This document shows, piece by piece, positions 1,044 through 40,596 of a stretch of DNA of 64,000 nucleotides; the stretch's first letter is position 1, and each line of letters opens with the position of its first letter. The stretch is from the NCBI GenBank assembly GCA_947500385.1, contig CANMSA010000007.1, positions 116,929 to 180,928 on the forward strand, in the 5' to 3' direction. Origin of the DNA: an uncultured Flavobacteriaceae bacterium (GTDB lineage: Bacteria; Bacteroidota; Bacteroidia; Flavobacteriales; Flavobacteriaceae). Below the pieces are notes generated by a model. It searched no databases. It worked only from the letters and a program-made list of their open reading frames with translations, and was not told the DNA's origin. The position numbers were made by a program, and so were the translations under genes.

Positions 1044-1558
1044 CAAAATATGCTGCACTCTTCGGAGGTTCCGGAAACAATAAACAATCAAAGGAATACC
1101 TAGAGACGATTGAGATTGGTTCTTTTTTAGCCAAACAAGGTTACATCGTAAAGAATGGCGGATATGGTGGTATGATGGAAGCCGTTTCGAAAGGAACCAC
1201 CGAATCGGGAGGCAAAGCGGTTGGGATTACCTGTAAACAAGTAGGTGCTGCTGAGGGAAACAAGTATTTGTCGGAAACGATTGTTACGGATAAGTTGTAT
1301 GAAAGACTGGAATTGTTAATTGAGAACACCACCATTTTTATTGTGCAGCGAGGAGGAATTGGAACCCTTTCGGAGGTGTTTTTAGTGTTGGATATCATCC
1401 GTAAAGAACCTGTAGGGCAAAGACCAAAAATGTACTTTGTCGGTGCTATTTGGCATCATTGTATTGATTCGTTAAAATCAACTTTAATACCTGCGAAAGA
1501 GCATGGTTTGTTCCAGATCGTAAAGGATTTGGCGGAACTACGGGAAAGAATTTTATAG
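1040..1558 (+). CDS. LOG/SLOG family protein
   Basis: ALFGGS, NGGYGGMMEAVSKG and GGIGTLSE motifs. Confidence 0.85.
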   Translation: MTKYAALFGGSGNNKQSKEYLETIEIGSFLAKQGYIVKNGGYGGMMEAVSKGTTESGGKAVGITCKQVGAAEGNKYLSETIVTDKLYERLELLIENTTIFIVQRGGIGTLSEVFLVLDIIRKEPVGQRPKMYFVGAIWHHCIDSLKSTLIPAKEHGLFQIVKDLAELRERIL

Positions 1559-1578
1559 GATTAAAGTACTATTAGGAA

Positions 1579-2121
1579 ATGGAGGAACAGCTTAAAAAAC
1601 GGATAAGTAAATTTTTAAGTTTGATATTAAGACATCAACCGGAAAAAATTGGTCTAACCCTAGATGAAAATGGATGGGCTGAGGTGGATGATATCCTTGA
1701 AAAATCAAAAGTATCATTCACCTATGAGGAGTTGGTCGAGGTAGTCAAAACAAATGACAAACAACGATTTGCGTTGAATGATGATCGGACCAAGATTCGG
1801 GCCAATCAAGGGCACTCACTTAACACCGTTGATTTAGACTTACAACCTGAAATACCACCCGCTTTTTTATACCATGGAACAGTAGCCAAGTTTATCCCTG
1901 AAATACGATTGCAGGGCCTAAAAAAAATGAGTAGGCAACATGTTCATCTAAGTGTGGATAGGGATACCGCTGCTAAAGTAGGGTCAAGAAGGGGCAAGCC
2001 CGTTATACTTTCTATCAGGGCTTTGGATATGCATAACAACGGACATCGGTTTTATAAATCGGAAAACGGCGTTTGGTTAACCGATAAAGTGATACCAGCT
2101 TTCATAAATTTTAAGGCATAA
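1579..2121 (+). CDS. kptA: RNA 2'-phosphotransferase (KptA/Tpt1)
   Basis: SKFLSLILRH, DKQRF, IRANQGHS, LYHGT, RQHVHLS and NGVWLT motifs. Confidence 0.95.
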   Translation: MEEQLKKRISKFLSLILRHQPEKIGLTLDENGWAEVDDILEKSKVSFTYEELVEVVKTNDKQRFALNDDRTKIRANQGHSLNTVDLDLQPEIPPAFLYHGTVAKFIPEIRLQGLKKMSRQHVHLSVDRDTAAKVGSRRGKPVILSIRALDMHNNGHRFYKSENGVWLTDKVIPAFINFKA

Positions 2122-2123
2122 TC

Positions 2124-2852
2124 TTGAAAAGGACACTAGTAATAGGGGATATTCACGGGGCTTTAAAAGCGCTGAAACAAGTGTTGGAAAGAGCCAAAAT
2201 AACCGGAAATGACAGACTGATATTTCTCGGTGACTATGTGGATGGTTGGAGTGAATCGTCGCAAACCATTCAATATTTAATTGCACTATCTGAAAAACAG
2301 GAATGTATTTTCATTTTAGGGAATCACGATTTATGGTGTAAGCTATGGTTGGAAAAAGGCGCCACAAATCCTATTTGGTTGGCCCATGGAGGTCAAGGAA
2401 CTATAGAAAGCTATATAAAAACAGGCTATCTAACCAGTGAGGTACATAGAGCCTTTTTTAGTCAATTGAAGAATTACTACCTAGATAATGACAACCGTCT
2501 TTTTGTACATGCAGGCTTTACTTCCATGCACGGAGTGGAGAAAGAACACAATGAAAATGATTTCTATTGGGACAGAACACTCTGGGAAGCGGCTAGGATA
2601 TTGAAGCATGTAAGCAAAGAGAAACGTTCGGAAATAGAAACTCGATTAGGTCTTTATAATGAAATCTATATTGGGCATACCCCAACCACAAATTATGAAA
2701 TCATGGAGCCAATAAATGCCATAAACCTTTGGAATGTAGATACGGGGGCGGCGTTTACCGGTAAGTTAACTGTGTTTGATGTAAACACAAAGGACTATTG
2801 GCAAAGTGACAAGGTAATGGAATTATATCCTATAGAAAAAGGGAGGAATTAG
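2124..2852 (+). CDS. Calcineurin-like metallophosphoesterase (PrpA/ApaH-like)
   Basis: GDIHG, GDYVD, GNHD, FVHAG, IGHTP and DTGA motifs; TTG start. Confidence 0.9.
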   Translation: MKRTLVIGDIHGALKALKQVLERAKITGNDRLIFLGDYVDGWSESSQTIQYLIALSEKQECIFILGNHDLWCKLWLEKGATNPIWLAHGGQGTIESYIKTGYLTSEVHRAFFSQLKNYYLDNDNRLFVHAGFTSMHGVEKEHNENDFYWDRTLWEAARILKHVSKEKRSEIETRLGLYNEIYIGHTPTTNYEIMEPINAINLWNVDTGAAFTGKLTVFDVNTKDYWQSDKVMELYPIEKGRN

Positions 2853-3107: not shown

Positions 3108-4814
3108 ATGAAACAGGTATTCACCACACTTTTATGCTGTATAGGTATCGCAGCTTTTTCGCAGGAGGCCCAAAAAAGACAAATTACTCCGGCCCAGATA
3201 GATGCGGTTTTTGCGCAATGGGATACACCGGACAGACCTGGAATAGCCGTAGGGGTGCTCAATGACGGGGAAATTGTATATACCAAGGGCTATGGGCAGG
3301 CCAATCTAGAGCATACCATCGCGATAAGCCCGGAAACGAGGTTCCATATTGGGGACTTGGCCAAGGAATTTACGGTGTATGCGCTGTTGTTGTTGGAACA
3401 AAGGGGGCAACTGTCCCTACAGGATGACGTGCGCAAGCATCTTCCGCAACTAGCGTCTTTAACACGACCGATTACCATTGAACAGTTAATGCATCACACG
3501 GGCGGTTTGAACAATGATGAAGTATCCAAGGCGTTGGCAGGTTGGCAAGCAGGGGATGTCTTTACGAAGGAACAAGCATATACCATGATACGCAACCAAG
3601 CAAAAGCGACCCCTAATAGCGGTAGTGTACAACGCCCCACGAATAGCGGATTTATGATCCTTGAAGACCTGATTGCCAAAGTAGGTGAAACTACCTATGG
3701 CGATTTTATAACGGAGGAGATTTTTAAACCGTTGAAAATGACCAGTTCTGTGTTCGACAGGGAAGGAGCGGTTATCCCGAACAAAGCACAGGGGTATTTT
3801 GCGCAGGGAGATGGTTTTATTCGGTCGGCAATGCATCCTTCCCAAAACATCGTTTCCGATGTGTATACCACGGTAAAAGATATGTGTTTTTGGGCAAAAG
3901 AGCTTGGAGATCCAAAAATCGGAACCGCAGAGATGGTCAAAAAATTCGATGCCTTGTCGGTCGTAGGCGAAGCAGAAGTCGCAGAAACCAATACTGCACT
4001 GTACACGGGCGGTCATCGCTATTGGAATCTTAGGGGTGCTAAAAAGTTGTATCATGTGGAGGTTGCCGGAGGCTATGCAAGCAAATTGATCCGCTATCCG
4101 GACTATGACCTCGCTGTGGTTATTATGGGAAATGACGGGGCTTACAACGGGTACGCAGGTACAGGAGCCAGTGCCCTTTATATTGAGGACTTTTTGGATC
4201 CTATGGTCACCGGGGCGGCGGCAACAACTAAATCCAAAAAATTATCAAAAAAACAATTGGTCGCGTTCGAAGGGGATTATTGGGACGCTGCCAACCATAC
4301 GAGCCGAAAGATCAGTGTTGTGAACGATACGTTGCGATATATGAGGGGCCCGGGAAATGAAAGTGCATTGGTGCCTTTGGCCAAGAATTCCTTTAAGATG
4401 ATAACAAATGCAACGGTCGTTGTAGAGTTCGATTCCGCCACTGACCCAAAGAATATGTCCGTGACCGTAGGGGACGACAAGTTCCATTTGACCGCCTATG
4501 ATTCGAATGCCCCCTGGACGAATAACTTACAGGCCTTTACAGGTACCTATTATGCCGAGGCCTTGGGTGCTTCCTATACGGTTGTTCTAGAGAACGGAAC
4601 CCTCGTACTCTCCCATCCAAGAGTAGGCATGGTTCAACTGGATCCAAGAGTTCCGAATCTATTTGCAGGTAATCGTAGGCATTTTGATTCCCTGGCATTT
4701 GAAAAAGATACCAATGGGACCGTTACCGGCTTTGCCTTGGCCACCTTTGGAGTTGCCGATATTTGGTTTCAAAAGGAAACGCCTTTGGGGAAAAATTTGG
4801 CAAAAACGAGGTAA
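3108..4814 (+). CDS. Secreted serine-hydrolase/beta-lactamase-family protein
   Basis: Signal peptide (MKQVFTTLLCCIG), PGIAVGV, LMHHTGGL and beta-lactamase-fold layout. The SxxK region reads GDLAK, so it may be inactive. An alternative upstream start is at 2991. Confidence 0.75.
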   Translation: MKQVFTTLLCCIGIAAFSQEAQKRQITPAQIDAVFAQWDTPDRPGIAVGVLNDGEIVYTKGYGQANLEHTIAISPETRFHIGDLAKEFTVYALLLLEQRGQLSLQDDVRKHLPQLASLTRPITIEQLMHHTGGLNNDEVSKALAGWQAGDVFTKEQAYTMIRNQAKATPNSGSVQRPTNSGFMILEDLIAKVGETTYGDFITEEIFKPLKMTSSVFDREGAVIPNKAQGYFAQGDGFIRSAMHPSQNIVSDVYTTVKDMCFWAKELGDPKIGTAEMVKKFDALSVVGEAEVAETNTALYTGGHRYWNLRGAKKLYHVEVAGGYASKLIRYPDYDLAVVIMGNDGAYNGYAGTGASALYIEDFLDPMVTGAAATTKSKKLSKKQLVAFEGDYWDAANHTSRKISVVNDTLRYMRGPGNESALVPLAKNSFKMITNATVVVEFDSATDPKNMSVTVGDDKFHLTAYDSNAPWTNNLQAFTGTYYAEALGASYTVVLENGTLVLSHPRVGMVQLDPRVPNLFAGNRRHFDSLAFEKDTNGTVTGFALATFGVADIWFQKETPLGKNLAKTR

Positions 4815-14126: not shown

Positions 14127-15227
14127 CTACTTGTTTACAGCAAAAATCTCTTTTAACTGTTTGACCATACCTCCGTTCCCGGAGACGGTGATCTCACCAA
14201 TCTTTTCGGCGATTTTCTCCACATATTCCATCTCTTTCAACTTGAAGAGCATTTCGTTTTCTTCCATTAGTTTAGCGGTGTTCAGCAAACTTCGGGTAGA
14301 AGCGGTCTCTTCACGTCGTGTAATGGTATTGGCCTGTGCCTGTTTTTGTGCCACAAGCACTTGGTTCATGATAGCCTTCATTTCACCCGTTAAGATGACA
14401 TCTCGGATACCACAGTTCAGTACTTGTACGCCCAGGTCGGCCGCTGTTGTCTTGATTTCGGAAAATACCGCATCGGCGATGCGTTCCTTTCGCTCTAACA
14501 GCTCATCCAAGGTATAGGTGCCTATGTAGGCACGCAATACCAATTGAATGGCAACATACAACTGCTTTTCGTAGTCTTTGTTTTCCAACAAGGCCTTTTC
14601 AATAGCAACTATCTTATACCGGGTATAGCAGTTGATTCGAATAGCGGCCTTGTCCTTGGTCAACAATTCTTGCCCTGCGATTTCGAGTTGCAATTGTCGC
14701 ATATCGGCGCGTGCAATCTTTACCGAGGTATCGTTTTTCCAGAAGTGGTATACCCCACTGTCCAGAACCTTCACGAAGGTATCCTCGACCAGTAACAGCG
14801 CTTTTTCGTATGCCAAAATCTCCAATACACGAATGTAAGGGCGTAACAAAGGATGTCCTAGCAGCATTTTGCCAATGGGTTCGGTGATGTAGATTTTACT
14901 CAAATCGGCCATCACGAACTCATAATTGATCAATCCTTTCCAGAAAGCATATTTACCGGCTGCAAGCACTTTTTTCAAAGTCCCGTTTTCAGATACCAAT
15001 GCCAACTCCGCATCTTTTACCTCGATAACGTGTAACATTGCCTCCAAACCTTGGTCCTGTAGCAAAATCTCCAATGCTATCGGGGCCACAAAGGCTTTGG
15101 TGAGGTCGTATACCATCACCATGTTTCGTAGGCCTACCCAGTGTGTGCCTTGGGTAATAACGTTTTGGTAATCTCCATTTTTGAAGACCAAACCTACTTT
15201 TCCTGCATTGATTCGTACTCGTTTCAT
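14127..15227 (-). CDS. Slipin (SPFH/band-7) family protein
   Basis: GQELLTKDK, GIRDVIL and RREETASTRSLLNTAKLME motifs of the RtcB-associated slipin family. Confidence 0.9.
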   Translation of the reverse strand: MKRVRINAGKVGLVFKNGDYQNVITQGTHWVGLRNMVMVYDLTKAFVAPIALEILLQDQGLEAMLHVIEVKDAELALVSENGTLKKVLAAGKYAFWKGLINYEFVMADLSKIYITEPIGKMLLGHPLLRPYIRVLEILAYEKALLLVEDTFVKVLDSGVYHFWKNDTSVKIARADMRQLQLEIAGQELLTKDKAAIRINCYTRYKIVAIEKALLENKDYEKQLYVAIQLVLRAYIGTYTLDELLERKERIADAVFSEIKTTAADLGVQVLNCGIRDVILTGEMKAIMNQVLVAQKQAQANTITRREETASTRSLLNTAKLMEENEMLFKLKEMEYVEKIAEKIGEITVSGNGGMVKQLKEIFAVNK

Positions 15228-15630
15228 TATTCAAAATTTGTGTCCGCCAGTCGATTGACGGACGAACGGGTTAAACTATTTTCATTTATTATTAGTTGGT
15301 TTAATTCTCTTTTAAAAAACCGCAACTACAAATCATCTATTCGATACGGAAATATAGGTTTTCGAAGTTCGTTACGATTTGTTTTTCGGTATGCTTCGGT
15401 CGGTGTTGCCAATACTATGTATTGGTTTTTCCGAGGGAAGGATGTTCAAAAAAGAAATTGCCTTTCACATCAAAAATTCAGTATTTCAAAGTAGTTTCAA
15501 GACTGTTGATTCATCCGAAGAAAAACCAACCGACCTATACCTACGGTTTTTTGCCAATTATACGGAGTGACCGTCCGGTGGTCTTTTTACAAGTGACCTT
15601 CTTGTTCAGAATGGATTTCAAGTCCATATC

Positions 15631-15707
15631 CCACATTATGAGTGTGGTGCTCTACCAACTGAGCTAAGAGATCTAAAAAAAGTGACCTCTGCAGGAGTCG
15701 AACCTGC
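15631..15707 (-). ncRNA. Circularly permuted tRNA(CAT)-like module (T arm > closed acceptor stem > D arm > anticodon arm)
   Basis: Minus strand reads GCAGG-TTCGACT-CCTGC AGAGGTC-A CTTTTTTTA GATCTCT TA GCTC-AGTTGGTA-GAGC A CCACA-CTCATAA-TGTGG. AGAGGTC/GATCTCT form 7 bp, with the 3' half preceding the 5' half. Confidence 0.6.
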
Positions 15708-15710
15708 GCG

Positions 15711-15806
15711 TACTTCTGTTGTTCTAACCAGGCTGAACTACATCCCCATTTTTTGTGAAATGGTTTGTGGGGAAGGAGGGATTCGAACCCCCGACTTACA
15801 GATGTA
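15711..15806 (-). ncRNA. Circularly permuted tRNA-like (YrlA-topology) module lacking an anticodon loop
   Basis: TAC-A-TCTGT AAGTC GGGGG-TTCGAAT-CCCTC CTTCCCC [21-nt loop] GGGGATG TA GTTC-AGCCTGGTTA-GAAC A ACAGA-A-GTA. The acceptor stem has 6/7 pairs and the closing stem is 5+3 bp. Confidence 0.6.
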
Positions 15807-15932
15807 AGACCATTTTTTGGAAAACAGCCGAAACCTTCAAGTCAAGTTGCATATGAAGACCTAATACTTCTCAGTAAAACTTCACACAATAGTGCTATAC
15901 AGAAACACCCAACAAGACCCGCTTGATACTTT

Positions 15933-16082
15933 ATTCCCGCGAAAGCGGGAATCTTTTACGATTTCCCTATGCGAAGCGTAGGCCTCGCCAGGGAATCTTA
16001 TCTTTCAATGAACTTTAATAAACCTCGCAACACACCTTGTTGCTGCGAGGCACCCCCGCAAACCACAGCTTATGTGGTTTGC
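15933..16082. repeat. Cluster of four GC-rich palindromic hairpins (REP-like)
   Basis: attcccgc-gaaa-gcgggaat; ttccct...agggaa; cctcgca...tgcgagg; gcaaaccaca...tgtggtttgc. Confidence 0.55.
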
Positions 16083-16092
16083 ACTATATATT

Positions 16093-16435
16093 AAAAAGCG
16101 TACTGGGAATACCCACGCTTATGGACAAGCTTTCGTAGGAGTACGGCAAAAGCCTTCCCTACTTTTCCACGCGCTTTCCGTTGCTTTGGAAATCGCGTAC
16201 TTGTCCGATGCCAGATACATTGTAACCGTTCGGCGACTTAGACTCGGCCTGCATAGCGGCTTTGGCCGCGCTTTGCAATTACAGGGGTTGGCTCCCCCAC
16301 CGTTCATAGGTGTCCCCTTGCGGGGCGACCTACTAGAATGTTCACCGCATGGTATCGGTTTGCGACCGCTACCACCCCATATCTTGCAATGGGTTTAGGC
16401 AACTACTAGCTGCTACAATGCCCGAAGTCTTTTGC
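16093..16435 (-). ncRNA. Candidate large structured ncRNA B (~340 nt)
   Basis: No credible ORF. Hairpins CCCC-GCAA-GGGG, CGGT-CGCAA-ACCG and GCGGC-CAAA-GCCGC; long-range 7-bp pairs CATTGTA/TACAATG and GGACAAG/CTTGTCC; terminator-like 3' hairpin plus U-run. Confidence 0.6.
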
Positions 16436-16496
16436 TTTTCTGATGCTCCCGAATGAGCTAAGAGACTAATGGGTTGCTCTTGGGAATCGAACCCAA

Positions 16497-16890
16497 ACAA
16501 AAGGTTGGCTTAGAAGAAGGGCTTCGAGAATGGCTCCGTAGATTTTGGCCTACAAAATACCAACCTTCTTCTTGAGTGCCTCCCGGCACACGGTATGTGA
16601 AGCTACCGAACAGTTTCCTATCAGGTACCTCTGGTACTGCACCAAGCTCCGCTGGGTCGGATGCCCCATACGTAACCTAGTACTACAACTTTTCCTCTTG
16701 GTGTCTCCACCGCAAGCCTACACAATGTATCGGCTATAAGTCCCGAGGTTGCCTCAGCGGTCGCCCCCGGCGTATCGTGACTTATGTTGGTTGCTTGCTT
16801 ACCTGCACTACCTTCCGAAGAAGGCAGTCTCCGCCTGCGATGCCCGCATGCAGATTTATCCTTGTTACCAAGTTTATCTGAGGACGATAA
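16497..16890 (-). ncRNA. Candidate large structured ncRNA A (~400 nt)
   Basis: No credible ORF. ACTGCCTTC-TTCG-GAAGGTAGT, GGTG-GAGA-CACC, GTGCC-GGGA-GGCAC, ATAAGTC/GACTTAT and AGAAGAAGG/CCTTCTTCT helices. Confidence 0.6.
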
Positions 16891-16939
16891 GCCGCCCCGT
16901 CATTTACAAGAAATGACGATTTTATTAGAAGAAGCCCAT

Positions 16940-17070
16940 ATGGACTTCTCTATTTCAATGAACGTTCCTCTGAGGCCGACGCGCCATCTGGCCCATTCGC
17001 AAAAAATGTCCACTGGACATTTTCTTAACGCGCTGGCCTACCACAGCTCTTCCCTTTGAGCTAAAGAGGC
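16940..17070 (-). pseudogene. tRNA 5'-half remnant interrupted by a palindromic element
   Basis: GCCTCTT TA GCTC-AAAGGGAA-GAGC followed by the palindrome AAAATGTCCAGTGGACATTTT; no matching 3' acceptor strand. Confidence 0.5.
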
Positions 17071-17172
17071 ATTTTGTTAAAGCCCCACAACACTCCTTTG
17101 TTGTTGTGAGGCACTCCCGCAAACCTCTTTTTGAAAGGCTAGTTTTTAATTACACAACAAAATTGAATCATA

Positions 17173-17195
17173 ACTACGCAATGATTATGCGTAGT
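17173..17195. promoter_or_regulatory. Probable WYL-regulator operator, perfect palindrome ACTACGCA-N7-TGCGTAGT
   Basis: Same arms as at 40597-40619; lies just upstream of a minus-strand CAATTTTG -7-like element. Confidence 0.75.
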
Positions 17196-17219
17196 AAAAA
17201 TGTTTTCAAGACAATTGCT

Positions 17220-17714
17220 TTATACCGCCATGTCCGCACAGGACGAGCTTGCAAACGCAAACGGTTTTGCCTTAAAAACAAATCCCATTCCAAGGATATA
17301 GCCCATCGCTTCTTTTAGTGCCACATTCGATTCAAATTTGGGATCCGTATTAATATCGGCGTGCACTTCAAGCTCGACATTGTATTTGTCCAAAATGTGG
17401 CAGATTGCATAAGCTGTCTCGACGGACATGGCCACTTCTTTTAACATACGCTCTTTGATACTGATGTTAGTAGTGCCCTTTTGATTTTTGATAAACATAA
17501 AACCACCTTTACCTTCCCTAAGTATGACCACTACAGTAGCATAGGCAATGTAAGACTTGTAGGCTTGTGAATCGGACCCTACACAAATCTTAATTCGATA
17601 TCCTGCCTTTTGCTCCCTGACAATGGCCTGCTCAACCAGAGTTGTGATGGGCTGTTCAAAAACCTTCCCGTTAAAATTTCTCCATTTATTCACTGCTATT
17701 TTCATAATTTTCAA
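17220..17714 (-). CDS. Ribonuclease H-like YkuK (DUF458) family protein
   Basis: CVGSDSQ, LKEV, LEVHADIN and KP.AFA.SSCAD motifs; start probably at 17705 or 17714. Confidence 0.85.
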   Translation of the reverse strand: MKIMKIAVNKWRNFNGKVFEQPITTLVEQAIVREQKAGYRIKICVGSDSQAYKSYIAYATVVVILREGKGGFMFIKNQKGTTNISIKERMLKEVAMSVETAYAICHILDKYNVELEVHADINTDPKFESNVALKEAMGYILGMGFVFKAKPFAFASSSCADMAV

Positions 17715-17728: not shown

Positions 17729-17827
17729 TGGAACATACTGGGATGGAACCCTTCGACTTTGCCCAGGACAGGCCCGGTACCTTTGGTACTTAAAACCAAC
17801 GTGCACACCTACTACACTGCTGTTCCC
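17729..17827 (-). pseudogene. tRNA-Leu(TAA)-like, degenerate, with REP-like insert in T arm
   Basis: GGGAACA...TTGGT-TTTAAGT-ACCAA...ATGTTCC-A; insert ccttcgactttgcccaggacagg on the + strand. Confidence 0.5.
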
Positions 17828-17832
17828 TTTTG

Positions 17833-17905
17833 GGTGACTTGAGAGATTCGAACTCTGTTCTTCGCTTTCACACAGCGATGTTTTACCACATAAACTAAAG
17901 TCACC
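17833..17905 (-). tRNA. tRNA-His(GTG)
   Basis: 8-bp acceptor GGTGACTT/AAGTCACC (G-1), anticodon arm TCGCT-GTGTGAA-AGCGA, T loop TTCGAAT. Confidence 0.75.
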
Positions 17906-17911
17906 ATGTTG

Positions 17912-17982
17912 TTCATCCGATAGGATTCGAACCTATACGACAAGAATCAAAGTCTTGTGTGCTCCCATTACACAACGGATGA
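17912..17982 (-). tRNA. tRNA-Gln(TTG)
   Basis: TCATCCG/CGGATGA; CAAGA-CTTTGAT-TCTTG; ATAGG-TTCGAAT-CCTAT. Confidence 0.85.
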
Positions 17983-18053
17983 ATTTTGTAGGCCTAAAAG
18001 GATTTATTCATGTCACTTCTATTGTTTTTTAACCGTATTCATGAATGCTCCTC

Positions 18054-18167
18054 ATTTGAACCCATACCACAAGGGTCGAAATGCTTTTCAGCATTCACGA
18101 ACTCCTTAATTTAATTAAACAAGGGCGTGAGCTAAACCTTGTATGCTAACCATTACATCACGGGTCT
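18054..18167 (-). pseudogene. tRNA-Arg(TCG) with 52-nt anticodon-loop insert and missing 3' end
   Basis: AGACCCG TG ATGT-AATGGTTA-GCAT A CAAGG TTT[52 nt]TTTCGAC CCTTG TGGT ATGGG TTCAAAT, after which the sequence diverges. Confidence 0.6.
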
Positions 18168-18184
18168 ATTTGCAAGCTTAACAA

Positions 18185-18256
18185 TCCCGAGACTTCGGGA
18201 GAACTCTTGCCTCAAGGGTAGAAACCTTACGTGCTATCCATTACTCTTTAGACTAC
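18185..18256 (-). pseudogene. Degenerate tRNA-Arg(TCT) with T-loop palindrome
   Basis: AAGG-TTTCTAC-CCTT, then GAG-TTC-[TCCCGAAGTCTCGGGA]; the 3' acceptor is lost. Confidence 0.5.
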
Positions 18257-18259
18257 TTT

Positions 18260-18335
18260 TGGTACTCCACCTTGGATTCGAACCAAGACTAAACAGGGCT
18301 TAAACCCGATGCCTCTTCCGTTGGGCTAGTAGAGC
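18260..18335 (-). tRNA. tRNA-Leu(TAA), short variable loop, CCA encoded
   Basis: GCTCTAC/GTGGAGT-A-CCA; loop TTTAAGC; CTTGG-TTCGAAT-CCAAG. Confidence 0.7.
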
Positions 18336-18451
18336 AGTGATAAAAGGAGAGCGATTCCCTTCGACTGTGCTCAGGATACACTTCTCTTCTGTTTTACTTT
18401 TTACAAAATTTCAAAAGAACTTACCGAATACAGCTATTTCCATTTTTTTAG

Positions 18452-18525
18452 TACAGGGAGAGCGATTCGAACGCTCAAATACCTGATTCTAAATCAGGAG
18501 CCTTTGCCATTTTGGCCATCCCTGC
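18452..18525 (-). tRNA. tRNA-Leu(TAG), short variable loop
   Basis: GCAGGGA/TCCCTGT; CCTGA-TTTAGAA-TCAGG; GAGCG-TTCGAAT-CGCTC. Confidence 0.8.
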
Positions 18526-18531
18526 AAATCG

Positions 18532-18615
18532 TTGAGGCATTAGTCCCGACACTTCGGGAGAACCTAAGACTCCCGTGTTAAAAGGACGGTACTCTACCAA
18601 CTGAGTTATACCTCA
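18532..18615 (-). pseudogene. tRNA-Lys(TTT) with 16-nt palindrome in T loop
   Basis: TGAGGTA/TGCCTCA; loop CTTTTAA; TTAGG-TTC-[TCCCGAAGTGTCGGGA]-CTAA. Confidence 0.7.
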
Positions 18616-18620
18616 CTTTG

Positions 18621-18702
18621 TACTCTGTAAGGCCCCGACGCTTCGGGGGAACCCCTGTTTCCTGATAGAAAGTCAGGCGTACTACCATTATACGAACAGA
18701 GC
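18621..18702 (-). pseudogene. tRNA-Glu(TTC) with 16-nt palindrome in T loop
   Basis: GCTCTGT/ACAGAGT; CCTGA-CTTTCTA-TCAGG; AGGGG-TTC-[CCCCGAAGCGTCGGGG]-CCTT. Confidence 0.7.
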
Positions 18703-18716
18703 AAAAGTCTGAGAAG

Positions 18717-18867
18717 TCCCGCATTAGCGGGACGACCTCCCGCTTCCAAAGCGGGCAAACAACTCCCGACACTTAGGTCGGTATCCTGACTTTCGCGATG
18801 GCGAAACGTCAGGACCCGTACCTTCCCGATAGACAGTCGGGTGCTCTAGGCTTTGAACTACGGTACT
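18717..18867 (-). pseudogene. tRNA-Asp(GTC) 5' part followed by a stack of palindromic inserts
   Basis: GTTC-AAAGCCTA-GAGC, CCCGA-CTGTCTA-TCGGG, ACGGG-T, then a ~50-nt double hairpin and two more palindromes; no 3' acceptor. Confidence 0.6.
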
Positions 18868-18870
18868 TTG

Positions 18871-18954
18871 TGGAAGTAGTAGTCCCGACACTTCGGGAGA
18901 ACCCTTAATTCCACATAGAAAGTGTGGCGTCTTAGCCGTTTGACCAACGTAGCC
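18871..18954 (-). pseudogene. Chimeric tRNA-Glu(TTC) with T-loop palindrome
   Basis: GGCTACG...CCACA-CTTTCTA-TGTGG AAGGG-TTC-[TCCCGAAGTGTCGGGA]-CTAC TACTTCC-A; the 3' strand does not pair with the 5' acceptor. Confidence 0.6.
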
Positions 18955-18959
18955 TTTTG

Positions 18960-19031
18960 CGGTTCATACGAGAATCGAACTCGTATCTCCCGAGAGACAG
19001 TCGGGAAGGATTGCCATTACCCCAATGAACC
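18960..19031 (-). tRNA. tRNA-Asp(GTC)
   Basis: GGTTCAT/ATGAACC-G; CCCGA-CTGTCTC-TCGGG; ACGAG-TTCGATT-CTCGT. Confidence 0.85.
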
Positions 19032-19039
19032 CAATTTTG

Positions 19040-19111
19040 TACACCTACTAGGATTCGAACCCGGACTGAAAGAGTAGAAGTCTTTAGTGCTATCCCTTAC
19101 ACCATAGATGC
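19040..19111 (-). tRNA. tRNA-Arg(TCT)
   Basis: GCATCTA/TAGGTGT; AAAGA-CTTCTAC-TCTTT; T loop TTCGAAT with one T-stem mismatch. Confidence 0.8.
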
Positions 19112-19117
19112 TTCTTG

Positions 19118-19199
19118 TGGGAATGATAGGATTCGAACCTATTAAGCCAAAGCACCAGTTTTACAGACTGGCTCAACCCTCCATCGTTGACGCATTCCC
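19118..19199 (-). tRNA. tRNA-Tyr(GTA)
   Basis: GGGAATG/CATTCCC; CCAGT-CTGTAAA-ACTGG; longer variable region; ATAGG-TTCGAAT-CCTAT. Confidence 0.85.
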
Positions 19200-19206
19200 T
19201 TTTTTG

Positions 19207-19279
19207 AGACAAGGACAGGATTCGAACCTGTAAAAAACAGATTTGCAGTCTGCCACCTTAACCATTCAGCCACCTTGTC
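19207..19279 (-). tRNA. tRNA-Cys(GCA)
   Basis: GACAAGG/CCTTGTC with U73; GCAGA-CTGCAAA-TCTGT; ACAGG-TTCGAAT-CCTGT. Confidence 0.85.
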
Positions 19280-19283
19280 TATT

Positions 19284-19434
19284 TGGCGGAGTTGAGCCCC
19301 AAGGCTTCGAGGGAATACCGACGCTTGGGTCGGTATCCTGACTTTCACGAACGTGAAACGTCAGGACCTCCACCGCCTCTGGTGCGGCCTTGTTTAGCAG
19401 ACAAGTGTAACAAACCAGTATTTACCTACTCTCC
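19284..19434 (-). pseudogene. tRNA-Ser(GCT) with composite hairpin insert in T loop
   Basis: GGAGAGT...CTTGT-CTGCTAA-ACAAG, long variable arm GCCGC/GCGGT, GGAGG-T-[~70-nt insert]-...ACTCC-G-CCA. Confidence 0.65.
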
Positions 19435-19443
19435 ATTTTTTTG

Positions 19444-19517
19444 TCTGAGAGACAGGATTCGAACCTGCAACCTCCTGCATCCAAGGCAGGTAAACCAAAC
19501 CATCGTTATCCTCTCAG
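19444..19517 (-). tRNA. tRNA-Pro(TGG)
   Basis: CTGAGAG/CTCTCAG; CCTGC-CTTGGAT-GCAGG; GCAGG-TTCGAAT-CCTGT. Confidence 0.85.
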
Positions 19518-19522
19518 TGTTG

Positions 19523-19610
19523 CGGAAGGAGTGGGGGTCGAACCCACACGAGGCGTTAACTCCTAACTGTTTTCAAAACAGCGACCACCACCAAATTGGT
19601 TTGCCCTTCC
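19523..19610 (-). tRNA. tRNA-Ser(TGA)
   Basis: GGAAGGG/TCCTTCC-G; GCTGT-TTTGAAA-ACAGT; long variable arm; GTGGG-TTCGACC-CCCAC. Confidence 0.85.
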
Positions 19611-19616
19611 ATCTTG

Positions 19617-19691
19617 TTGACCCGATGGGAATCGAACCCATGACCTCGACCTTAAAAGGGCCTTGCTCTAACCTGGCTGAGCTACGAATCA
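19617..19691 (-). tRNA. tRNA-Lys(TTT)
   Basis: TGATTCG/CGGGTCA; GCTC-AGCCAGGTTA-GAGC; loop CTTTTAA; ATGGG-TTCGATT-CCCAT. Confidence 0.85.
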
Positions 19692-21555: not shown

Positions 21556-22086
21556 TTATTTTCGAAGTTTCTTTTTTTGTCTTTTGGAAGCAGGCTTCTT
21601 ATCCAATTTCAACTTTTTTTTGATTCGCTTTTCCTCTCCTTCGATAAAAGAAAAGTAGTCTTCGTTAAAAGAGTACTTTTTGGACTTCTTCAGATATTTC
21701 AGAGCAATTTGATAGTGCTCTTGGGTTTCCGCGGCATAGGCGGAAAGCCACAACAGACTGCCTTTTGATACGCCCTTTAGGGTCAATGCAAAAGCGATTA
21801 GATTTGTCGCTCTTTCAATTTCATCTGCCCAGATCAAGTATAAGGTGTACATGGGATAAACGTCCAAGTAATAGTTGTCTAAGGCGATTACTTTATCAAA
21901 ACATTCGAAAGCTTTCTCATATTGATGTAAGTTTCTGGCATACACGCTACCAAGAAGGCAAAGTGCCGCACAATGATTTTCGTCATAGGACAGGGCATAG
22001 TTTAACGATTCGCATACTTCGTCCCAGTCATAGCCGCGCGCGGCCTTGGCCTTTAAGTAGTAGGTGTCTGCTATGGTTAGTCCCAT
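21556..22086 (-). CDS. TPR-like protein (paralog 1), coupled to prfH
   Basis: MGLTIADTYYLKAK; TPR-like helices; Lys-rich tail; overlaps the prfH stop. Confidence 0.8.
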   Translation of the reverse strand: MGLTIADTYYLKAKAARGYDWDEVCESLNYALSYDENHCAALCLLGSVYARNLHQYEKAFECFDKVIALDNYYLDVYPMYTLYLIWADEIERATNLIAFALTLKGVSKGSLLWLSAYAAETQEHYQIALKYLKKSKKYSFNEDYFSFIEGEEKRIKKKLKLDKKPASKRQKKKLRK

Positions 22087-22769
22087 TGTTGTTTTCTTAG
22101 TTGGTTTTTTAGTTGTTGCCGTTTTGGCCTGTATTTTTTAAGTGTTTTTTGAGGTTTAAAGTCGGTACCTTTAAAAATACGAACAGGATTTCCACGCTGT
22201 AAATCCAAATGATTTTCCCATTGATCGGTCATCCTGCTTTTTAATTGCGCTAGGTTGGCTTCCTTCACCTTTTCCTTCAACCGAGCGATAGCCAATTTTT
22301 TATTTTGATGTTGAGAACGACTGTCCATCACTACTACCTGAACGCCCGTTGGGGTATGAATGGCGCGAACAGCGGAGTTTACTTTGTTCACATGCTGTCC
22401 TCCTGGACCCTTGCTCCGCATGGTCTGAAATGAGATTTCTTTTTCAGTTACCTCCATGGTCTGCGTCATTTTTAATTCGAAAGCGCCGATGAACCAGTTT
22501 TTCCGTTTATGATGTTTTCGAAATCTCGAGGTGCCGATCCATTGAATGGTACCCAGCCAAGTTGCTAAAAAAGTAGCTAGGTCCTTCCCTTTTAAGCAAA
22601 TTGTAACCGATTGTACAGTGCCGTTTTGGGTGCCTTTTTCCTGATGTAGGATGCTATGCTGAATACCTGCTTTTTTGGTTTCCTGCAAGAATAGTTTAAG
22701 TACTTGGGCAACCACCCAACCACATTCCGAGGGCCCTCTACCAGCTGTTATCTGTAGTATTTTTTCCAT
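22077..22769 (-). CDS. prfH: Peptide chain release factor H
   Basis: LQITAGRGPSEC, WIGTS, RKNWFIG and GPGGQHVNKVNSAVRA..PTG (GGQ); adjacent to rtcB. Confidence 0.93.
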   Translation of the reverse strand: MEKILQITAGRGPSECGWVVAQVLKLFLQETKKAGIQHSILHQEKGTQNGTVQSVTICLKGKDLATFLATWLGTIQWIGTSRFRKHHKRKNWFIGAFELKMTQTMEVTEKEISFQTMRSKGPGGQHVNKVNSAVRAIHTPTGVQVVVMDSRSQHQNKKLAIARLKEKVKEANLAQLKSRMTDQWENHLDLQRGNPVRIFKGTDFKPQKTLKKYRPKRQQLKNQLRKQQWD

Positions 22770-22859: not shown

Positions 22860-24251
22860 TCACTTATTCATTCGTACTATTTTAGGCGTAAAGGTTCCGA
22901 GTACCTCTACCAACTCTTGTTGATTCGCCATGACCTTCTCAATGTTTTTGTACGCCATGGGCGCTTCGTCGATACCTCCACCAATAAGGGTGACCTCGTG
23001 TTTTTGCAACTGCTTCTTGATCTCACTTTTGGTAAAAGTCTCTTTGCACTTTCGTCTTGAAAAAAGACGCCCGGCGCCATGGGAGGCAGAATTTAAACTT
23101 GTTGTATTTCCCAAACCCCTTACGACATAACCCGGCGCGGTCATGGAGCCGGGAATAATTCCCAGTTCACCTTTTGCCGCCGGAGTCGCTCCTTTTCGAT
23201 GCACGATACACTCCTTGCCGTTCAACTCCTGTTTCCAGGCCAAGTTGTGATGGTTCGCTATTTTGAACAATGGCTTTACACCTAAAAGTTTGGCCAATCT
23301 TGTGTGAATATTATCATGACAAGCGGTTGCATAATCTCCCGCTAAGTTCATGGCCAACCAATATTCCTGTCCGTCATGGGTATCCAAATCGAGCCAAGCA
23401 AGATGCTGTACATGTTTGGGCAGTGGGCATTGCTTTGTTGCCAAATAAGTATAGTGTTTCGCTATTTTGGCGCCCAGACCTCTAGAGCCACTATGCGACA
23501 AAATCCCAAGGTATTCCCCTGGTTTTAAACCCCATTCGTTCTGAAGGTCGGTAATGGAAACACTACCGAATTCCACAAAGTGATTGCCTCCACCGGAAGT
23601 ACCCAATTGTTTGTAGGCGGTATCCTTTAGACTTTTAAGTCGAGGGATGTTTTTAAATTCGTCCCGTTCAAAGATTTCATGATCATGCTTTATGGAATGC
23701 GTCTCGCGCATACCGAACTTGGTATGTTCGGAAAGCATGTTTGCCAATTGATGCTTCTTTCCTTTAAGGTAGGAAACCGCAATTGGATAAACGGTCAAAC
23801 ACATACTACAGCCAATATCGACTCCGACCCCATAGGGGATGACCGCATTATGGGTCGCCAACACCCCTCCGATCGGTAGGCCATACCCGCTATGTGCATC
23901 GGGCATCAATGCCCCCGCCACAGAAACCGGTAGTTTTAAAGCATCGTACAATTGATACTTCGCTTGCTGTTCAATTTCATTTTCACCATATATCTGAAAA
24001 GGGGCACGCACTTTTTTGAGTTCCTGTTTTTTAACGATGACCGGGTCTAACAAACTTTCGGCAATCTTTCCCCATACCCCATCACCTTGATAGTCTTCTG
24101 GGTGCAACAATACTTTTTTAGCTACGGTCAATACCTGCTCCTTTTTCATTCGCTTGTGGTATCGGTTGATCTGCCCCAAGGTAATGTTGATACTGTTGTT
24201 CTTTGGAAAACCTAATTTGATCAGGTCCTTTCCGCTTAATTTCTTTCCCAT
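22860..24251 (-). CDS. rtcB: RNA ligase RtcB (PrfH-linked type)
   Basis: PDAHSGYGLPIGG, GVDIGC, GTSGGGNHF, HSGSRG, HHN, HRKGAT, PGSM, SHGAGR and DEAP motifs. Confidence 0.95.
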   Translation of the reverse strand: MGKKLSGKDLIKLGFPKNNSINITLGQINRYHKRMKKEQVLTVAKKVLLHPEDYQGDGVWGKIAESLLDPVIVKKQELKKVRAPFQIYGENEIEQQAKYQLYDALKLPVSVAGALMPDAHSGYGLPIGGVLATHNAVIPYGVGVDIGCSMCLTVYPIAVSYLKGKKHQLANMLSEHTKFGMRETHSIKHDHEIFERDEFKNIPRLKSLKDTAYKQLGTSGGGNHFVEFGSVSITDLQNEWGLKPGEYLGILSHSGSRGLGAKIAKHYTYLATKQCPLPKHVQHLAWLDLDTHDGQEYWLAMNLAGDYATACHDNIHTRLAKLLGVKPLFKIANHHNLAWKQELNGKECIVHRKGATPAAKGELGIIPGSMTAPGYVVRGLGNTTSLNSASHGAGRLFSRRKCKETFTKSEIKKQLQKHEVTLIGGGIDEAPMAYKNIEKVMANQQELVEVLGTFTPKIVRMNK

Positions 24252-25488: not shown

Positions 25489-27648
25489 ATGATTATGAAA
25501 CTACTATATACGTTTTTTCTATTTTGTACCGCTGCATTGAGCTATGCTCAGGAAGGTGACAGTCCGTATTTATTGGTAACTACCCAAGACGCTGTAATTC
25601 CTTTAAAGGCCTCGAAGACCAATGTACAAATCTCCGGTGCCATTGCGCATGTTCAAATTACCCAAGTATATCAAAACCTGGGAACTTCGGCGATTGAGGC
25701 CAAGTATGTGTTTCCGCTTTCTATCCATGCGGCCGTACATAAAATGCAAATGACCATAGGAGATCGTATCGTGAATGCCAAGATATTTGAAAAGCAAACA
25801 GCACAAAAAGTATACGAGACCGCCTTGAGCGAAGGGAAACGTGCTGCTAAATTGGATCAAGATCGGCCGAATGTATTTCAAATGAATGTGGGCAATATTA
25901 TGCCGCGAGATGAAATTACCATCGCAATCTTCTACACTGAAATGCTGGTGCCGGTAAACGGACAGTACCAATTTGTAGCTCCTTCGGTCGTTGGGCCGCG
26001 CTTTACCGGAGAACGTTCTGGGAATACAGATAGTTTTAACATGCCCTATACCGCCAAGGGCATAGCGGACACTTTTGATTTTGACATGACGGTTTTCATA
26101 AACGCCGGTATGCTAATTCAAAGTATTACCAGCACAAGTCATATCGTAGCGTTGAGGTATCCCGATGCTAAGACTGCCGAGGTGTTTTTATCCAAAAACA
26201 ATAAAAACCCGGCTAACAGGGATTTCATCCTCAACTATAACCTTCGGGGAAACAAAATACAATCGGGATTGCTCTTGTATGAGGACAAAGATGAACACTT
26301 CTTCACCTATCAAATGGAACCGACAAAAAATGTTGTTTTGGAGGATATTCCAAGCAGGGAGTACCTATTTATTGTAGATGTCTCAGGTTCCATGAACGGA
26401 TATCCATTGGAAGTATCCAAAGAACTCATGCGAAACTTGCTTTGTAACCTACGGCCTACAGATACGTTTAACGTGCAGTTGTTTGCTTCAAGTGCTACGG
26501 TTTTCAGTACGACGCCCGTAGAAACGAATGAGCAGAATATCGAAGCGGCCATTCGCTTTCTTTCTGAAGGTCAGGGAGGCGGGGGTACCCAATTGCTGAA
26601 TGCCTTACAGGAGGCATACAAGTTGCCACGAAAAGACCCCAGCAATGCCCGTTCTATGGTTGTCATTACCGATGGTTATGTAAGTGTAGAAAAGGAGGCT
26701 TTTGAGCTGATCAAAAACAACTTAGATCAGGCCAATGTATTCACTTTTGGTATTGGCTCTAGTGTAAATCGATACCTGATCGAAGGCATGGCCAAAGTGG
26801 CCAATAGTGAATCTTTTATTGCAACTTCGATGGGAGAGGCGAATGGGGTCGCCAAGAAATTTGCAACATACATTTCAACACCCTTGTTGACACAGGTTAA
26901 AATTGAGTCACAAGGTTTTGAGATGTATGACATGGCACCAAGCAGTATCCCCGACGTTTTTGCGGCAAGACCTGTGGTGGTGCATGGCAAATATCGTGGT
27001 AAAGCCCACGGTAAAATTATTATTACCGGGTATCAGGGGGCTAAAAAGTTCAGACAAGAATTTAAGGTTGCACATGGCCACCTTAGCAAAGCGAACAAGG
27101 CATTGCCTTATTTATGGGCAAGACAACGAATAGCCGAATTGGGCGACTATCATAAAATTTTCAATGAGGATGTAAGGGATCGTGTGATTGCACTGGGCCT
27201 GAAATACAATTTGGCCACCGACTATACCTCGTTTGTTGCCGTTGATGAAGTAGTCGCAAACAAAAATGGTTCAATAAGCACGGTGAAACAACCCTTGCCG
27301 ATGCCTCGTAATGTAAACAATTTAGCGGTCGGGGCAGCGGGCGAAGTGAGGGAGCGCACAACATACAAACCATCCTTTAACATTGCATTTAATGAAAACC
27401 TTGACAAAACCACCAAAAGAAAAATCACGATGGAATTCAAAACAATCTATACAAAATTGGTAAACGACTATTTGGAGAAGTACAAAGGCCTACGGATAAA
27501 ATTCGATAAAAATGGCCAAATCGTCTGTGTCGAAAAAATGGAAAAAGGTCAGTGGGTTTTAGATAGCGGATTAATGGATGAATTTGATGCATTTTCAACG
27601 AGAAGAATGCGCTTGGACAAGGAAGTGATTTTGACATTGAAAAAATAG
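25489..27648 (+). CDS. Secreted VIT + vWA domain protein
   Basis: Signal peptide; VIT (VQISGAIAHV.ITQ.YQN...EAKYVFPL); vWA MIDAS DVSGSM, GGGT and ITDG. Confidence 0.9.
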   Translation: MIMKLLYTFFLFCTAALSYAQEGDSPYLLVTTQDAVIPLKASKTNVQISGAIAHVQITQVYQNLGTSAIEAKYVFPLSIHAAVHKMQMTIGDRIVNAKIFEKQTAQKVYETALSEGKRAAKLDQDRPNVFQMNVGNIMPRDEITIAIFYTEMLVPVNGQYQFVAPSVVGPRFTGERSGNTDSFNMPYTAKGIADTFDFDMTVFINAGMLIQSITSTSHIVALRYPDAKTAEVFLSKNNKNPANRDFILNYNLRGNKIQSGLLLYEDKDEHFFTYQMEPTKNVVLEDIPSREYLFIVDVSGSMNGYPLEVSKELMRNLLCNLRPTDTFNVQLFASSATVFSTTPVETNEQNIEAAIRFLSEGQGGGGTQLLNALQEAYKLPRKDPSNARSMVVITDGYVSVEKEAFELIKNNLDQANVFTFGIGSSVNRYLIEGMAKVANSESFIATSMGEANGVAKKFATYISTPLLTQVKIESQGFEMYDMAPSSIPDVFAARPVVVHGKYRGKAHGKIIITGYQGAKKFRQEFKVAHGHLSKANKALPYLWARQRIAELGDYHKIFNEDVRDRVIALGLKYNLATDYTSFVAVDEVVANKNGSISTVKQPLPMPRNVNNLAVGAAGEVRERTTYKPSFNIAFNENLDKTTKRKITMEFKTIYTKLVNDYLEKYKGLRIKFDKNGQIVCVEKMEKGQWVLDSGLMDEFDAFSTRRMRLDKEVILTLKK

Positions 27649-37227: not shown

Positions 37228-38706
<1,479 letters not shown>

Positions 38707-38735
38707 TCATGATTCCGGTACAAACTTCCTACTTA

Positions 38736-38758
38736 TTCGCGCAATGATTTTGCGTAGT
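38736..38758. promoter_or_regulatory. Probable WYL operator, imperfect (TTCGCGCA-N7-TGCGTAGT)
   Basis: One arm is identical to the 17173 and 40597 sites; followed on the minus strand by GAAGTTTG, upstream of the second rtcB. Confidence 0.65.
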
Positions 38759-38763
38759 TGGGT

Positions 38764-40565: not shown

Positions 40566-40596
40566 TTCTAAATTTATAATACAAACTTGAAAACGA

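Follow-up and report, generated by a model that had tools for sequence, protein, structure and literature searches.

We describe here a structured RNA encoded on the minus strand of a 64,000-nucleotide (nt) stretch of DNA from an uncultured Flavobacteriaceae bacterium (assembly GCA_947500385.1, contig CANMSA010000007.1), which is referred to below, at its full length, as the window. Two successive tRNA-like units form the middle of this RNA, and in each of them the T arm and the 3' acceptor strand come before the 5' acceptor strand and the D arm. The permuted pairing is real, far above chance and under selection, and the ordinary tRNA-style reading of the region is wrong. The two units lie within a conserved structured RNA that runs from ~16050 to ~15305; this RNA is expressed, is abundant in two lineages, and is encoded directly upstream of a gene for a slipin, a protein of the Band-7 (SPFH) kind. 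On balance, we favor the view that this long RNA is non-coding and stable, that the units are its tRNA-mimic core, and that it would be the partner of the slipin in an RtcB-linked repair module. Our best reading of the RNA is as the Bacteroidota form of the Band-7-associated tRNA-like RNA that was predicted by Burroughs and Aravind, to judge from the description of that RNA in the Discussion of a later preprint (bioRxiv 10.1101/312249).

Two permuted tRNA-like units

As read from the letters, the minus strand from 15802 to 15631 consists of two units, each ordered T arm, 3' acceptor strand, loop, 5' acceptor strand, U8-A9 and D arm. The initial annotation of this DNA had described two successive modules of T arm, closed acceptor and D arm at this place, and the positions that it gave for the modules and for the helices within them were confirmed. 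The elements are as follows.

15715-15802, minus strand: tRNA-like unit 1, YrlA-type, ordered TCTGT, AAGTC, T arm, acceptor hairpin, U8 A9, D arm, A26, ACAGA
15802-15798 (TCTGT) and 15719-15715 (ACAGA), minus strand: closing strands of unit 1, an anticodon-type stem; AAGTC is the variable loop
15792-15776, minus strand: T arm of unit 1, GGGGG TTCGAAT CCCTC
15775-15769 (CTTCCCC), a 21-nt loop, and 15747-15741 (GGGGATG), minus strand: acceptor hairpin of unit 1, 6 of 7 pairs, one U.U
15738-15721, minus strand: D arm of unit 1, preceded by TA and followed by A (A26), before ACAGA
15708-15714, minus strand: 7-nt linker AGTACGC between the units
15631-15707, minus strand: tRNA-like unit 2, permuted at the variable loop, ordered T arm, acceptor hairpin, U8 A9, D arm, A26, full anticodon arm
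15707-15691, minus strand: T arm of unit 2
15690-15684 (AGAGGTC), a 10-nt loop, and 15673-15667 (GATCTCT), minus strand: acceptor hairpin of unit 2, 7 of 7 pairs including one G.U
15664-15649, minus strand: D arm of unit 2, preceded by TA
15647-15631, minus strand: complete anticodon arm of unit 2, CCACA CUCAUAA UGUGG, with the triplet CAU

Both units retain the tRNA-folding nucleotides U8, A14, G15, G18G19, Y48 and G53, together with a T loop of UUCGAAU or UUCGACU. The last base of the linker is a pyrimidine in all of 65 parsed sequences, and could serve as position 48 of unit 2. Unit 1 is without an anticodon loop, here and in every relative, its stem strands TCTGT and ACAGA being used to close the unit. 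The anticodon-type loop of unit 2 is always of the canonical 7 nt, and its triplet differs between related genera: CUUUUAA (Lys-like, UUU) was seen in 12 cases, CUCAUAA (Met/Ile-like, CAU) in 9, and UUG in 1. The 21-nt acceptor loop of unit 1 corresponds to a 17-nt insertion private to this genome, relatives having mostly 0-8 nt there; among the 65 parsed sequences the acceptor hairpins have loops of mostly 0-5 nt. Some genera carry three modules instead of two, as in Aquimarina algicola, in which the inserted third unit is Leu(UAG)-like with a long variable arm, and in Sphingobacterium, in which an extra unit lies upstream of the others. ARAGORN called no tRNA at the two units, and the Rfam tRNA model matched only weakly, at 15603-15673 (32.2 bits against a threshold of 29; 42-45 bits in the related loci L004 and L005).

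Six related loci, which were reached by way of homologues of the slipin, all carry the double module (6/6) some 450-550 nt upstream of the slipin gene, and compensatory changes among them were apparent by eye. One genome per species was also scanned with the pattern AGAACRACAGN{9,16}GGTTCGANTCC, in which the end of the D arm lies too close to the T loop for any ordinary tRNA. The scan returned 98 stretches which, with the six earlier loci, resolved into 80 stretches with the full architecture and 24 chance matches; the 80 amount to ~75 distinct loci or species, a few contigs having been fetched twice. The taxon-labelled loci are all from Bacteroidota, except for those in one Candidatus Peribacteria metagenome-assembled genome (L037) and one unclassified metagenome-assembled genome (L078), and the carriers include many genera of Flavobacteriaceae, Sphingobacterium, Cyclobacteriaceae, Cytophagales, Marivirga, Reichenbachiella, Fluviicola and Bacteroidales. 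Two patterns of the element gave 0 matches against viral contigs, and a BLAST comparison of 15300-17300 with a phage collection gave matches only to 35-45 nt of tRNA-Met genes.

Covariation of the acceptor hairpins in these sequences is strong. The invariant T loops and D arms served as anchors, and the stems were cut at constant distances from them, such that the alignment was not fitted to the structure, and 59 distinct sequences were thereby placed in a gapless alignment of 72 columns. In this set, 94.0% of the paired cells were complementary, as compared with 68.0% after shuffling, and none of 500 shuffles gave as high a value; the covariation score was 0.732 against 0.216 for the shuffled sets, and fell to 0.20 or less when the partners were slid by 1-3 columns. 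Changes on both sides were observed for all 14 acceptor pairs and for 6 of the 10 T-stem pairs. For the 65 parsed sequences, among which there are ~55 different acceptor strand pairs, the unit 1 acceptor formed a mean of 6.25 of 7 pairs (3.52 with partners shuffled) and the unit 2 acceptor 6.12 of 7 (3.25 with partners shuffled). We also compared the two possible registers of unit 2. The permuted register gave 6.36 of 7 pairs against a null value of 3.72, whereas the ordinary tRNA register, in which the downstream hairpin H3 (described below) would be the T arm, gave 2.77 of 7 against a null value of 2.71 and was rejected. RNAalifold, applied to 20 full-length sequences, recovered the same core stems without being given them.

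The surrounding RNA, its expression and the adjoining slipin gene

The initial annotation had treated the two units as a self-contained element of ~235 nt. We find instead that they lie inside the much longer conserved RNA, ~16050 to ~15305 on the minus strand, whose other elements are listed here from the 5' end.

15933-16050, minus strand: 5' conserved region (MAFFT alignment, 15 relatives); the letters of its hairpins differ between species and the complementarity is kept
16023-16050, minus strand: covarying hairpin within the 5' region
15933-15952, minus strand: covarying GC-rich hairpin ATTCCCGC GAAA GCGGGAAT, in the 5' region
15850-15930, minus strand: conserved block ATATCAAGC.GGTCTTGTTGGGTGTTTCTG and then hairpin P1 (15888-15873 with 15868-15850)
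15808-15829, minus strand: 5' hairpin P2, GGCTGTT, loop TTCCAAAA, AATGGTC (15829-15823 with 15814-15808)
15611-15627, minus strand: hairpin H3, ATGGA CUUGAAA UCCAU; the stem is conserved and the loop varies
15580-15598, minus strand: hairpin H4, GGUC, 11-nt loop ACUUGUAAAAA, GACC (15598-15595 with 15583-15580)
15563-15577, minus strand: hairpin H5, CGGA CGGUCAC UCCG; relatives have CAGC..GCUG and AGCC..GGCU there (by eye)
15315-15551, minus strand: 3' domain of ~215 nt, closed by a long-range helix (15551-15531 with 15335-15315)

Conservation and covarying hairpins reach upstream to ~16050 in the alignment of 15 relatives, in which the 5' region also holds the conserved motif AAAGTTCATTGAAA, and a 40-nt stretch at ~15960-16000 is carried by the window and L001 only. 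When read on the plus strand, the hairpin at 15933-15952 is followed by a T-run and has a terminator-like look. RNAalifold paired columns 36-51 with 57-75 for P1, with some changes on both sides, and columns 99-105 with 114-120 for P2, which covaries (GGCTAT/ATAGCC, GATTGTT/AACAATC and AATCAT/ATGATT in relatives). H4 likewise covaries (GACCA..UGGUC and UGAUCA..UGAUCA; columns 353-356 with 370-373). H3, which resembles an anticodon arm with a 7-nt loop of CUNNAAA and which the Rfam tRNA model takes as a degenerate T arm, is absent from 4 of 20 aligned Flavobacteriaceae (L015, L042, L069 and L084). Within the 3' domain there are inner hairpins at 15530-15505 and 15425-15409. Its long-range helix was predicted from 20 sequences (columns 405-425 with 632-652) and shows changes on both sides, A-U to G-C at 406/651 and C-G to A-U at 411/646; a U-run lies at the end of the 3' strand of the helix, and the ATG of the slipin gene comes 80-90 nt after it.

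We were unable to sustain two other features of the initial annotation. A helix between TGGTCTT (15812-15806) and AAGACCA (15585-15579) had been suggested to enclose the two units, and the two strands are complementary in this one sequence only: the leader heptamer varies among relatives (TGGTCTC, AGCCACC, TGATTAC, CGATCAC and others) while GGTC..GACC is fixed. The enclosing helix is not conserved because TGGTC is the 3' strand of P2 and GACC closes H4, each of which covaries locally. Similarly, the repeat AGGTCACTT had been taken as the scar of a tandem tRNA duplication. Its copies sit in two unrelated and separately evolving elements, one being the acceptor strand of unit 2, which differs in nearly all relatives, and the other lying in a 3' hairpin, and we rejected the duplication; the repeat looks like a chance occurrence.

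Evidence for expression comes from assembled contigs. In 3 of 4 RNA-seq runs from Sphingobacterium, we observed a discrete contig that begins at L050:4250, 4320 or 4346 and ends at L050:4871, corresponding to an RNA of ~525-620 nt. Its depth was 172-311, as compared with 2-17 over the open reading frame (ORF) of the slipin, which begins ~40 nt after the RNA contig; the drop at L050:4871 was 10-40 fold in these three runs. Just before the start of the contig there is a match to TTTG-N21-T.CTTTG (L050 ~4212-4244; by eye only). A Zobellia-like run gave a depth of 52-230 over the RNA and 10-15 over the slipin ORF, and contigs of relatives from marine metatranscriptomes cover the equivalent of window positions 15358-15654 and not the slipin ORF. 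A joined (ligated) tRNA form was not found in the assembled contigs.

The slipin gene is the consistent neighbour of the RNA, and was not mentioned in the initial annotation, which also made no reference to the long expressed RNA or to the GOLLD RNA and the array of eleven tRNAs upstream of it.

14127-15227, minus strand: slipin / SPFH (Band-7) gene, 366 amino acids (Pfam Band_7, E 1.8e-24)

The gene starts at 15227, ~350 nt past the two-unit stretch, and in all of the 58 loci that have enough downstream DNA a slipin gene follows the RNA on the same strand, at a median distance of 508 nt from the junction of the unit 1 D arm and the unit 2 T arm to the slipin ATG. The source is a marine flavobacterium: named homologues of the slipin are from Flagellimonas, Maribacter and Aquimarina, and proteins of the window carry Por_Secre_tail domains. 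By eye, no membrane segment or hydrophobic hairpin was seen in the slipin, unlike in classical stomatins. The protein starts with two or three tandem beta-strand repeats (residues 1-160; G-x-hydrophobic...G-x-Y-x-F-W). Its AlphaFold model comprises the N-terminal beta repeats, an SPFH domain and long helices, with a predicted local distance difference test score (pLDDT) of 64.8 overall and ~88 for residues 1-110. Foldseek searches with this model gave stomatin, HflK/C and prohibitin as top matches, and weaker but longer matches to the major vault protein. Because confidence in the model is moderate, we take the possible likeness to the vault protein as a lead and not as a result.

Other genes and RNAs of the region

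On the minus strand, the order is RtcB, PrfH, a TPR protein with small ORFs, eleven tRNAs, an RNaseH-like protein (PF04308), GOLLD, the long RNA and slipin. Coordinates for the principal upstream features are as follows.

22860-24251, minus strand: RtcB RNA ligase (Pfam RtcB, E 5e-83)
22077-22769, minus strand: PrfH, release-factor homologue (NCBIfam TIGR03072, 239 bits against a cut-off of 167)
16098-16572, minus strand: GOLLD RNA (full Rfam model 1-416, 124.2 bits, E 2e-33, below the gathering score of 150)

The RtcB-PrfH pair thus lies 6.3-8.4 kb upstream of the units on the same strand, in keeping with the link to RtcB that had been suspected at the outset. RtcB was found in at least 26 of the 80 related stretches, either upstream together with PrfH or, in Sphingobacterium, directly after slipin. 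No TROVE/Ro60 domain was detected among the ORFs of at least 150 amino acids in the window, as the initial annotation had stated.

ARAGORN placed the eleven tRNAs at 17832-19691 on the minus strand, between the RtcB-PrfH-TPR genes and the RNA and 2 kb upstream of the units, and there are two sub-threshold tRNA-like matches, at 17729-17826 and 18639-18702. In L001 to L006, whose slipins are 73-95% identical to that of the window, the array comprises 8, 19, 2, 11, 0 and 13 genes, respectively; the core is present without a nearby tRNA gene in L005 and L050. GOLLD, which in the window is chromosomal and lies between the tRNA array and the long RNA, occurs also in L001 (121 bits), and most other relatives are without it. 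Where the window has GOLLD or tRNA, L084, L003, L046, L004 and L010 have another conserved element of ~200 nt (...GGAAGAGCTGTGG...GCAGAAGCACCGAAA...GTGCCAGTTCGAATCTGGCAAG), which ends in a T-arm-like hairpin and lies ~150-350 nt upstream of unit 1. Between the tRNA array and GOLLD, at 17220-17714 on the minus strand, lies the RNaseH-like PF04308 (DUF458) gene; L002/L067 and L026 have it at 85-90% identity, and other relatives lack it.

A protein with VIT and vWA domains is encoded divergently next to RtcB (25489-27648, plus strand), and in Maribacter (L005) its counterpart adjoins the RNA-slipin pair. The combination of a VIT-vWA protein, an SPFH protein and a structured RNA may parallel the vault particle, in which the major vault protein has a shoulder domain and the vault PARP a VIT-vWA part. 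No defence-system model of PADLOC matched the slipin, the TPR protein, orf167, the RNaseH-like protein, the VIT-vWA protein, RtcB or PrfH.

Elsewhere in the window there is a second, divergent RtcB (37228-38664), with an ARPP-1 gene beside it (36075-37187), two RlaP nucleotidyltransferase genes (38764-40565) and a WYL-WCX regulator (40658-41671). We detected no tRNA-like RNA beside this second RtcB system (37228-41671), and Rfam searches at permissive thresholds from 15300 to 64000, which include it, gave no further YrlA-like element. A cluster at 34-2852 (plus strand) encodes a nucleoside 2-deoxyribosyltransferase-like protein, a SLOG/LOG-like protein, a Tpt1/KptA RNA 2'-phosphotransferase and a calcineurin-like phosphoesterase, and is possibly another module that acts on RNA ends or ADP-ribose.

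Relation to known RNAs and interpretation

Burroughs and Aravind (2016) predicted a b7a-tRNA (for 'band 7-associated tRNA') beside Band-7 genes in RtcB neighbourhoods, which is described as 'strongly resembling an authentic tRNA' in a preprint that discusses it; the same source states that YrlA RNAs occasionally adjoin Band-7 genes, and none of this had been validated as of that 2018 preprint (bioRxiv 10.1101/312249). Our literature search found no later or experimental study of a Band-7-associated RNA, and Rfam has no family for a Band-7-associated tRNA-like RNA. The RNA of the window agrees with the prediction, as far as that description goes, in being a tRNA-like RNA that adjoins a Band-7/SPFH gene in an RtcB neighbourhood. 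It differs from what is described in consisting of 2-3 permuted modules within an RNA of 500-750 nt that has 5' and 3' domains. As to the likeness to an authentic tRNA, the Rfam tRNA score of 32.2 bits agrees with it; the ordinary tRNA reading of the element, however, is without covariation support, and its acceptor pairing is at chance.

YrlA (RF02553) is a tRNA-mimicking Y RNA of Ro60/Rsr, which is known from Salmonella and from more than 250 bacteria and phages, and for which tandem tRNAs can produce false matches (PMC4201824). Unit 1 has the YrlA permutation, namely anticodon-stem strand, variable loop, T arm, acceptor hairpin, D arm and anticodon-stem strand, and the window RNA shares with YrlA the canonical T- and D-loop nucleotides and the RtcB neighbourhood. 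The YrlA-like topology noted by the initial annotation is genuine, as the covariation attests, and the tRNA-like part does match the Rfam YrlA model; the scores of 29.7 and 27.5 bits in the window (E 3e-4), and of 32-50 bits in relatives, are all below the gathering threshold of 69. These matches span model positions 20/23-89 or 30-81 only, which correspond to the tRNA-like part. The Ro60-binding terminal helix (model positions ~1-22 and 90-114) was not found in the matches, and in a full-length alignment of L004 the flanks are mismatched and of low confidence. Unlike YrlA, the window RNA has its modules in tandem, the last with a complete anticodon arm, is several times longer, has slipin as the neighbouring gene, and comes with neither a Ro60-binding helix nor, in the window, a nearby Ro60 gene.

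Circularly permuted tRNA genes are known in Cyanidioschyzon merolae and some other algae, where they yield ordinary tRNAs by way of a circular intermediate. Both units share with them the encoding of the 3' half before the 5' half, and differ in their closed acceptor hairpins, in the unfixed anticodon and in showing no sign of maturation to tRNA. GOLLD and ROOL are large ornate RNAs found near tRNA islands, and in some GOLLD RNAs the linker region holds tRNAs (PMC12286853). The window RNA is likewise a long, multi-domain, abundant RNA beside a tRNA array. Unlike GOLLD and ROOL, it sits on the chromosome and is linked to slipin, not to phage genes; the GOLLD and ROOL models gave no sequence or structure match within 15300-16097.

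The interpretation that we favor may be put as follows. The RNA would be transcribed from directly upstream of the slipin/Band-7 gene, with partial read-through into slipin. Its two or three tRNA-shaped modules have closed acceptors with no free end and therefore could be neither charged nor decoded. By analogy with Ro60 and YrlA, the non-tRNA 5' and 3' domains would bind an oligomer of the Band-7 protein, while the modules, with a single anticodon-type loop left exposed (UUU, Lys-like, or CAU, Met/Ile-like), would offer a tRNA surface to factors that recognize tRNA; candidates are RtcB or other repair enzymes, modification enzymes and tRNA-cutting toxins. In repair of the translation apparatus, the resulting particle would then serve as a scaffold, tether or bait. 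We would speculate that the anticodon-type loop suits factors that read anticodon loops, including anticodon nucleases.

Several observations weigh against this interpretation. We infer slipin binding and an effect on repair by analogy and not from direct evidence. The expression data are assembled contigs rather than strand-resolved reads, which leaves the strand and the ends of the RNA unproven. RtcB was not seen within 10 kb in L003 and L005. Folding of the single sequence recovered most of the stems, but with a z of -1.29, which is not significant by itself. In addition, the fourth Sphingobacterium run gave one contig that spans the RNA and the slipin ORF, and such read-through also fits a function of the RNA as a leader.

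It is conceivable, though rather unlikely, that the RNA acts in cis, as a leader of the slipin(-rtcB) mRNA. Its modules would then respond to, for instance, tRNA-nuclease cleavage, a tRNA-binding protein or a modification enzyme, and thereby control read-through past the U-run. The constant position directly upstream of slipin on the same strand, the terminator- or attenuator-like appearance of the long-range helix with its U-run, and the contrast between the one Sphingobacterium run that joins RNA and ORF and the three in which depth drops at L050:4871 are all what such a leader would give. Yet an RNA of 500 nt or more with many conserved domains would not be expected of it, and an abundance far above that of the ORF is typical of a stable RNA product. 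We found no alternative anti-terminator pairing, although the search was not systematic. Read-through itself does not discriminate, in that Salmonella Y RNAs lie within the rsr-rtcBA operon according to the preprint (bioRxiv 10.1101/312249). In a more elaborate proposal, which we hold to be about as doubtful as the leader, Bacteroidota as a whole would carry a hitherto undescribed large ornate RNA of ~0.5-0.8 kb with a central chain of domain-swapped tRNA mimics, which would assemble with a slipin that has no evident membrane segment into a vault- or Ro-like particle, the VIT-vWA protein and RtcB being encoded nearby. The 3' acceptor strand of one unit would pair in it with the 5' strand of the next, as a domain-swapped chain, and the Lys/Met anticodon loops would bait or sense anticodon nucleases, coupling tRNA damage to repair.

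The remaining explanations seem to us much less probable. One of them is a genuine Y RNA of the YrlA type, with its Ro60 (Rsr) partner encoded at another place in the genome. In its favor are the exact YrlA topology of unit 1, the rank of YrlA as the best non-tRNA match in Rfam, and the occasional location of YrlA beside Band-7 genes that the preprint reports (bioRxiv 10.1101/312249). We nevertheless judge it improbable, given scores of 27-50 bits that are confined to model positions ~20-89 and fall short of 69, the missing Ro-binding helix, a window without a TROVE protein, and slipin as the consistent neighbour. The initial annotation had left a choice between tRNA mimics and permuted pre-tRNAs that require RtcB-type ligation, and of these the mimics are the best reading. 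Permuted or split pre-tRNA genes, to be converted by RNase P/Z cleavage and RtcB ligation to a working tRNA(CAU) or tRNA(UUU), are suggested by the order of the halves, by the presence of every tRNA element in unit 2, by the nearby RtcB gene, and by some acceptor loops that start with A-CC(A), such as CGAGACC-ACCA-TTTTA in L006. Such genes are very improbable here: with loops of mostly 0-5 nt, the acceptors of relatives have no room for a discriminator or CCA tail, unit 1 never has an anticodon loop, the triplet varies between related genera (UUU 12, CAU 9, UUG 1), the contigs hold no joined form, and a larger conserved RNA surrounds the modules. Least credible of all are functionless, decaying remnants of tandem tRNAs at the edge of a tRNA array, even with eleven tRNAs 2 kb upstream on the same strand and the known capacity of tandem tRNAs for false YrlA-like matches (PMC4201824). 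Decayed tandem tRNAs are excluded by the covariation, there being compensatory changes in every acceptor pair and the same architecture in ~75 species of several Bacteroidota orders. The ordinary-register test refutes them as well, its acceptor pairing being at chance, and the core is highly expressed and is present also where no tRNA gene is nearby (L005 and L050).

In summary, the element is a real, conserved and expressed RNA of the YrlA/Band-7-associated tRNA-mimic kind, and is not categorically new. To our knowledge, tRNA mimicry by Y RNAs is known only with Ro60 as the partner. What has been gained is a defined covarying fold, abundant expression in two lineages and strict linkage to one gene across ~75 species, for an RNA that is much larger than a tRNA. 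The Band-7 counterpart, a bare prediction according to the 2018 preprint (bioRxiv 10.1101/312249), now has a concrete and testable form, for which experimental candidates include the sequenced strains Sphingobacterium multivorum NCTC11343 and Zobellia uliginosa C3R17. Should the SPFH protein and the RNA form a particle that works with RtcB/PrfH, this would be a second, independent bacterial use of tRNA-shaped RNAs as repair handles.

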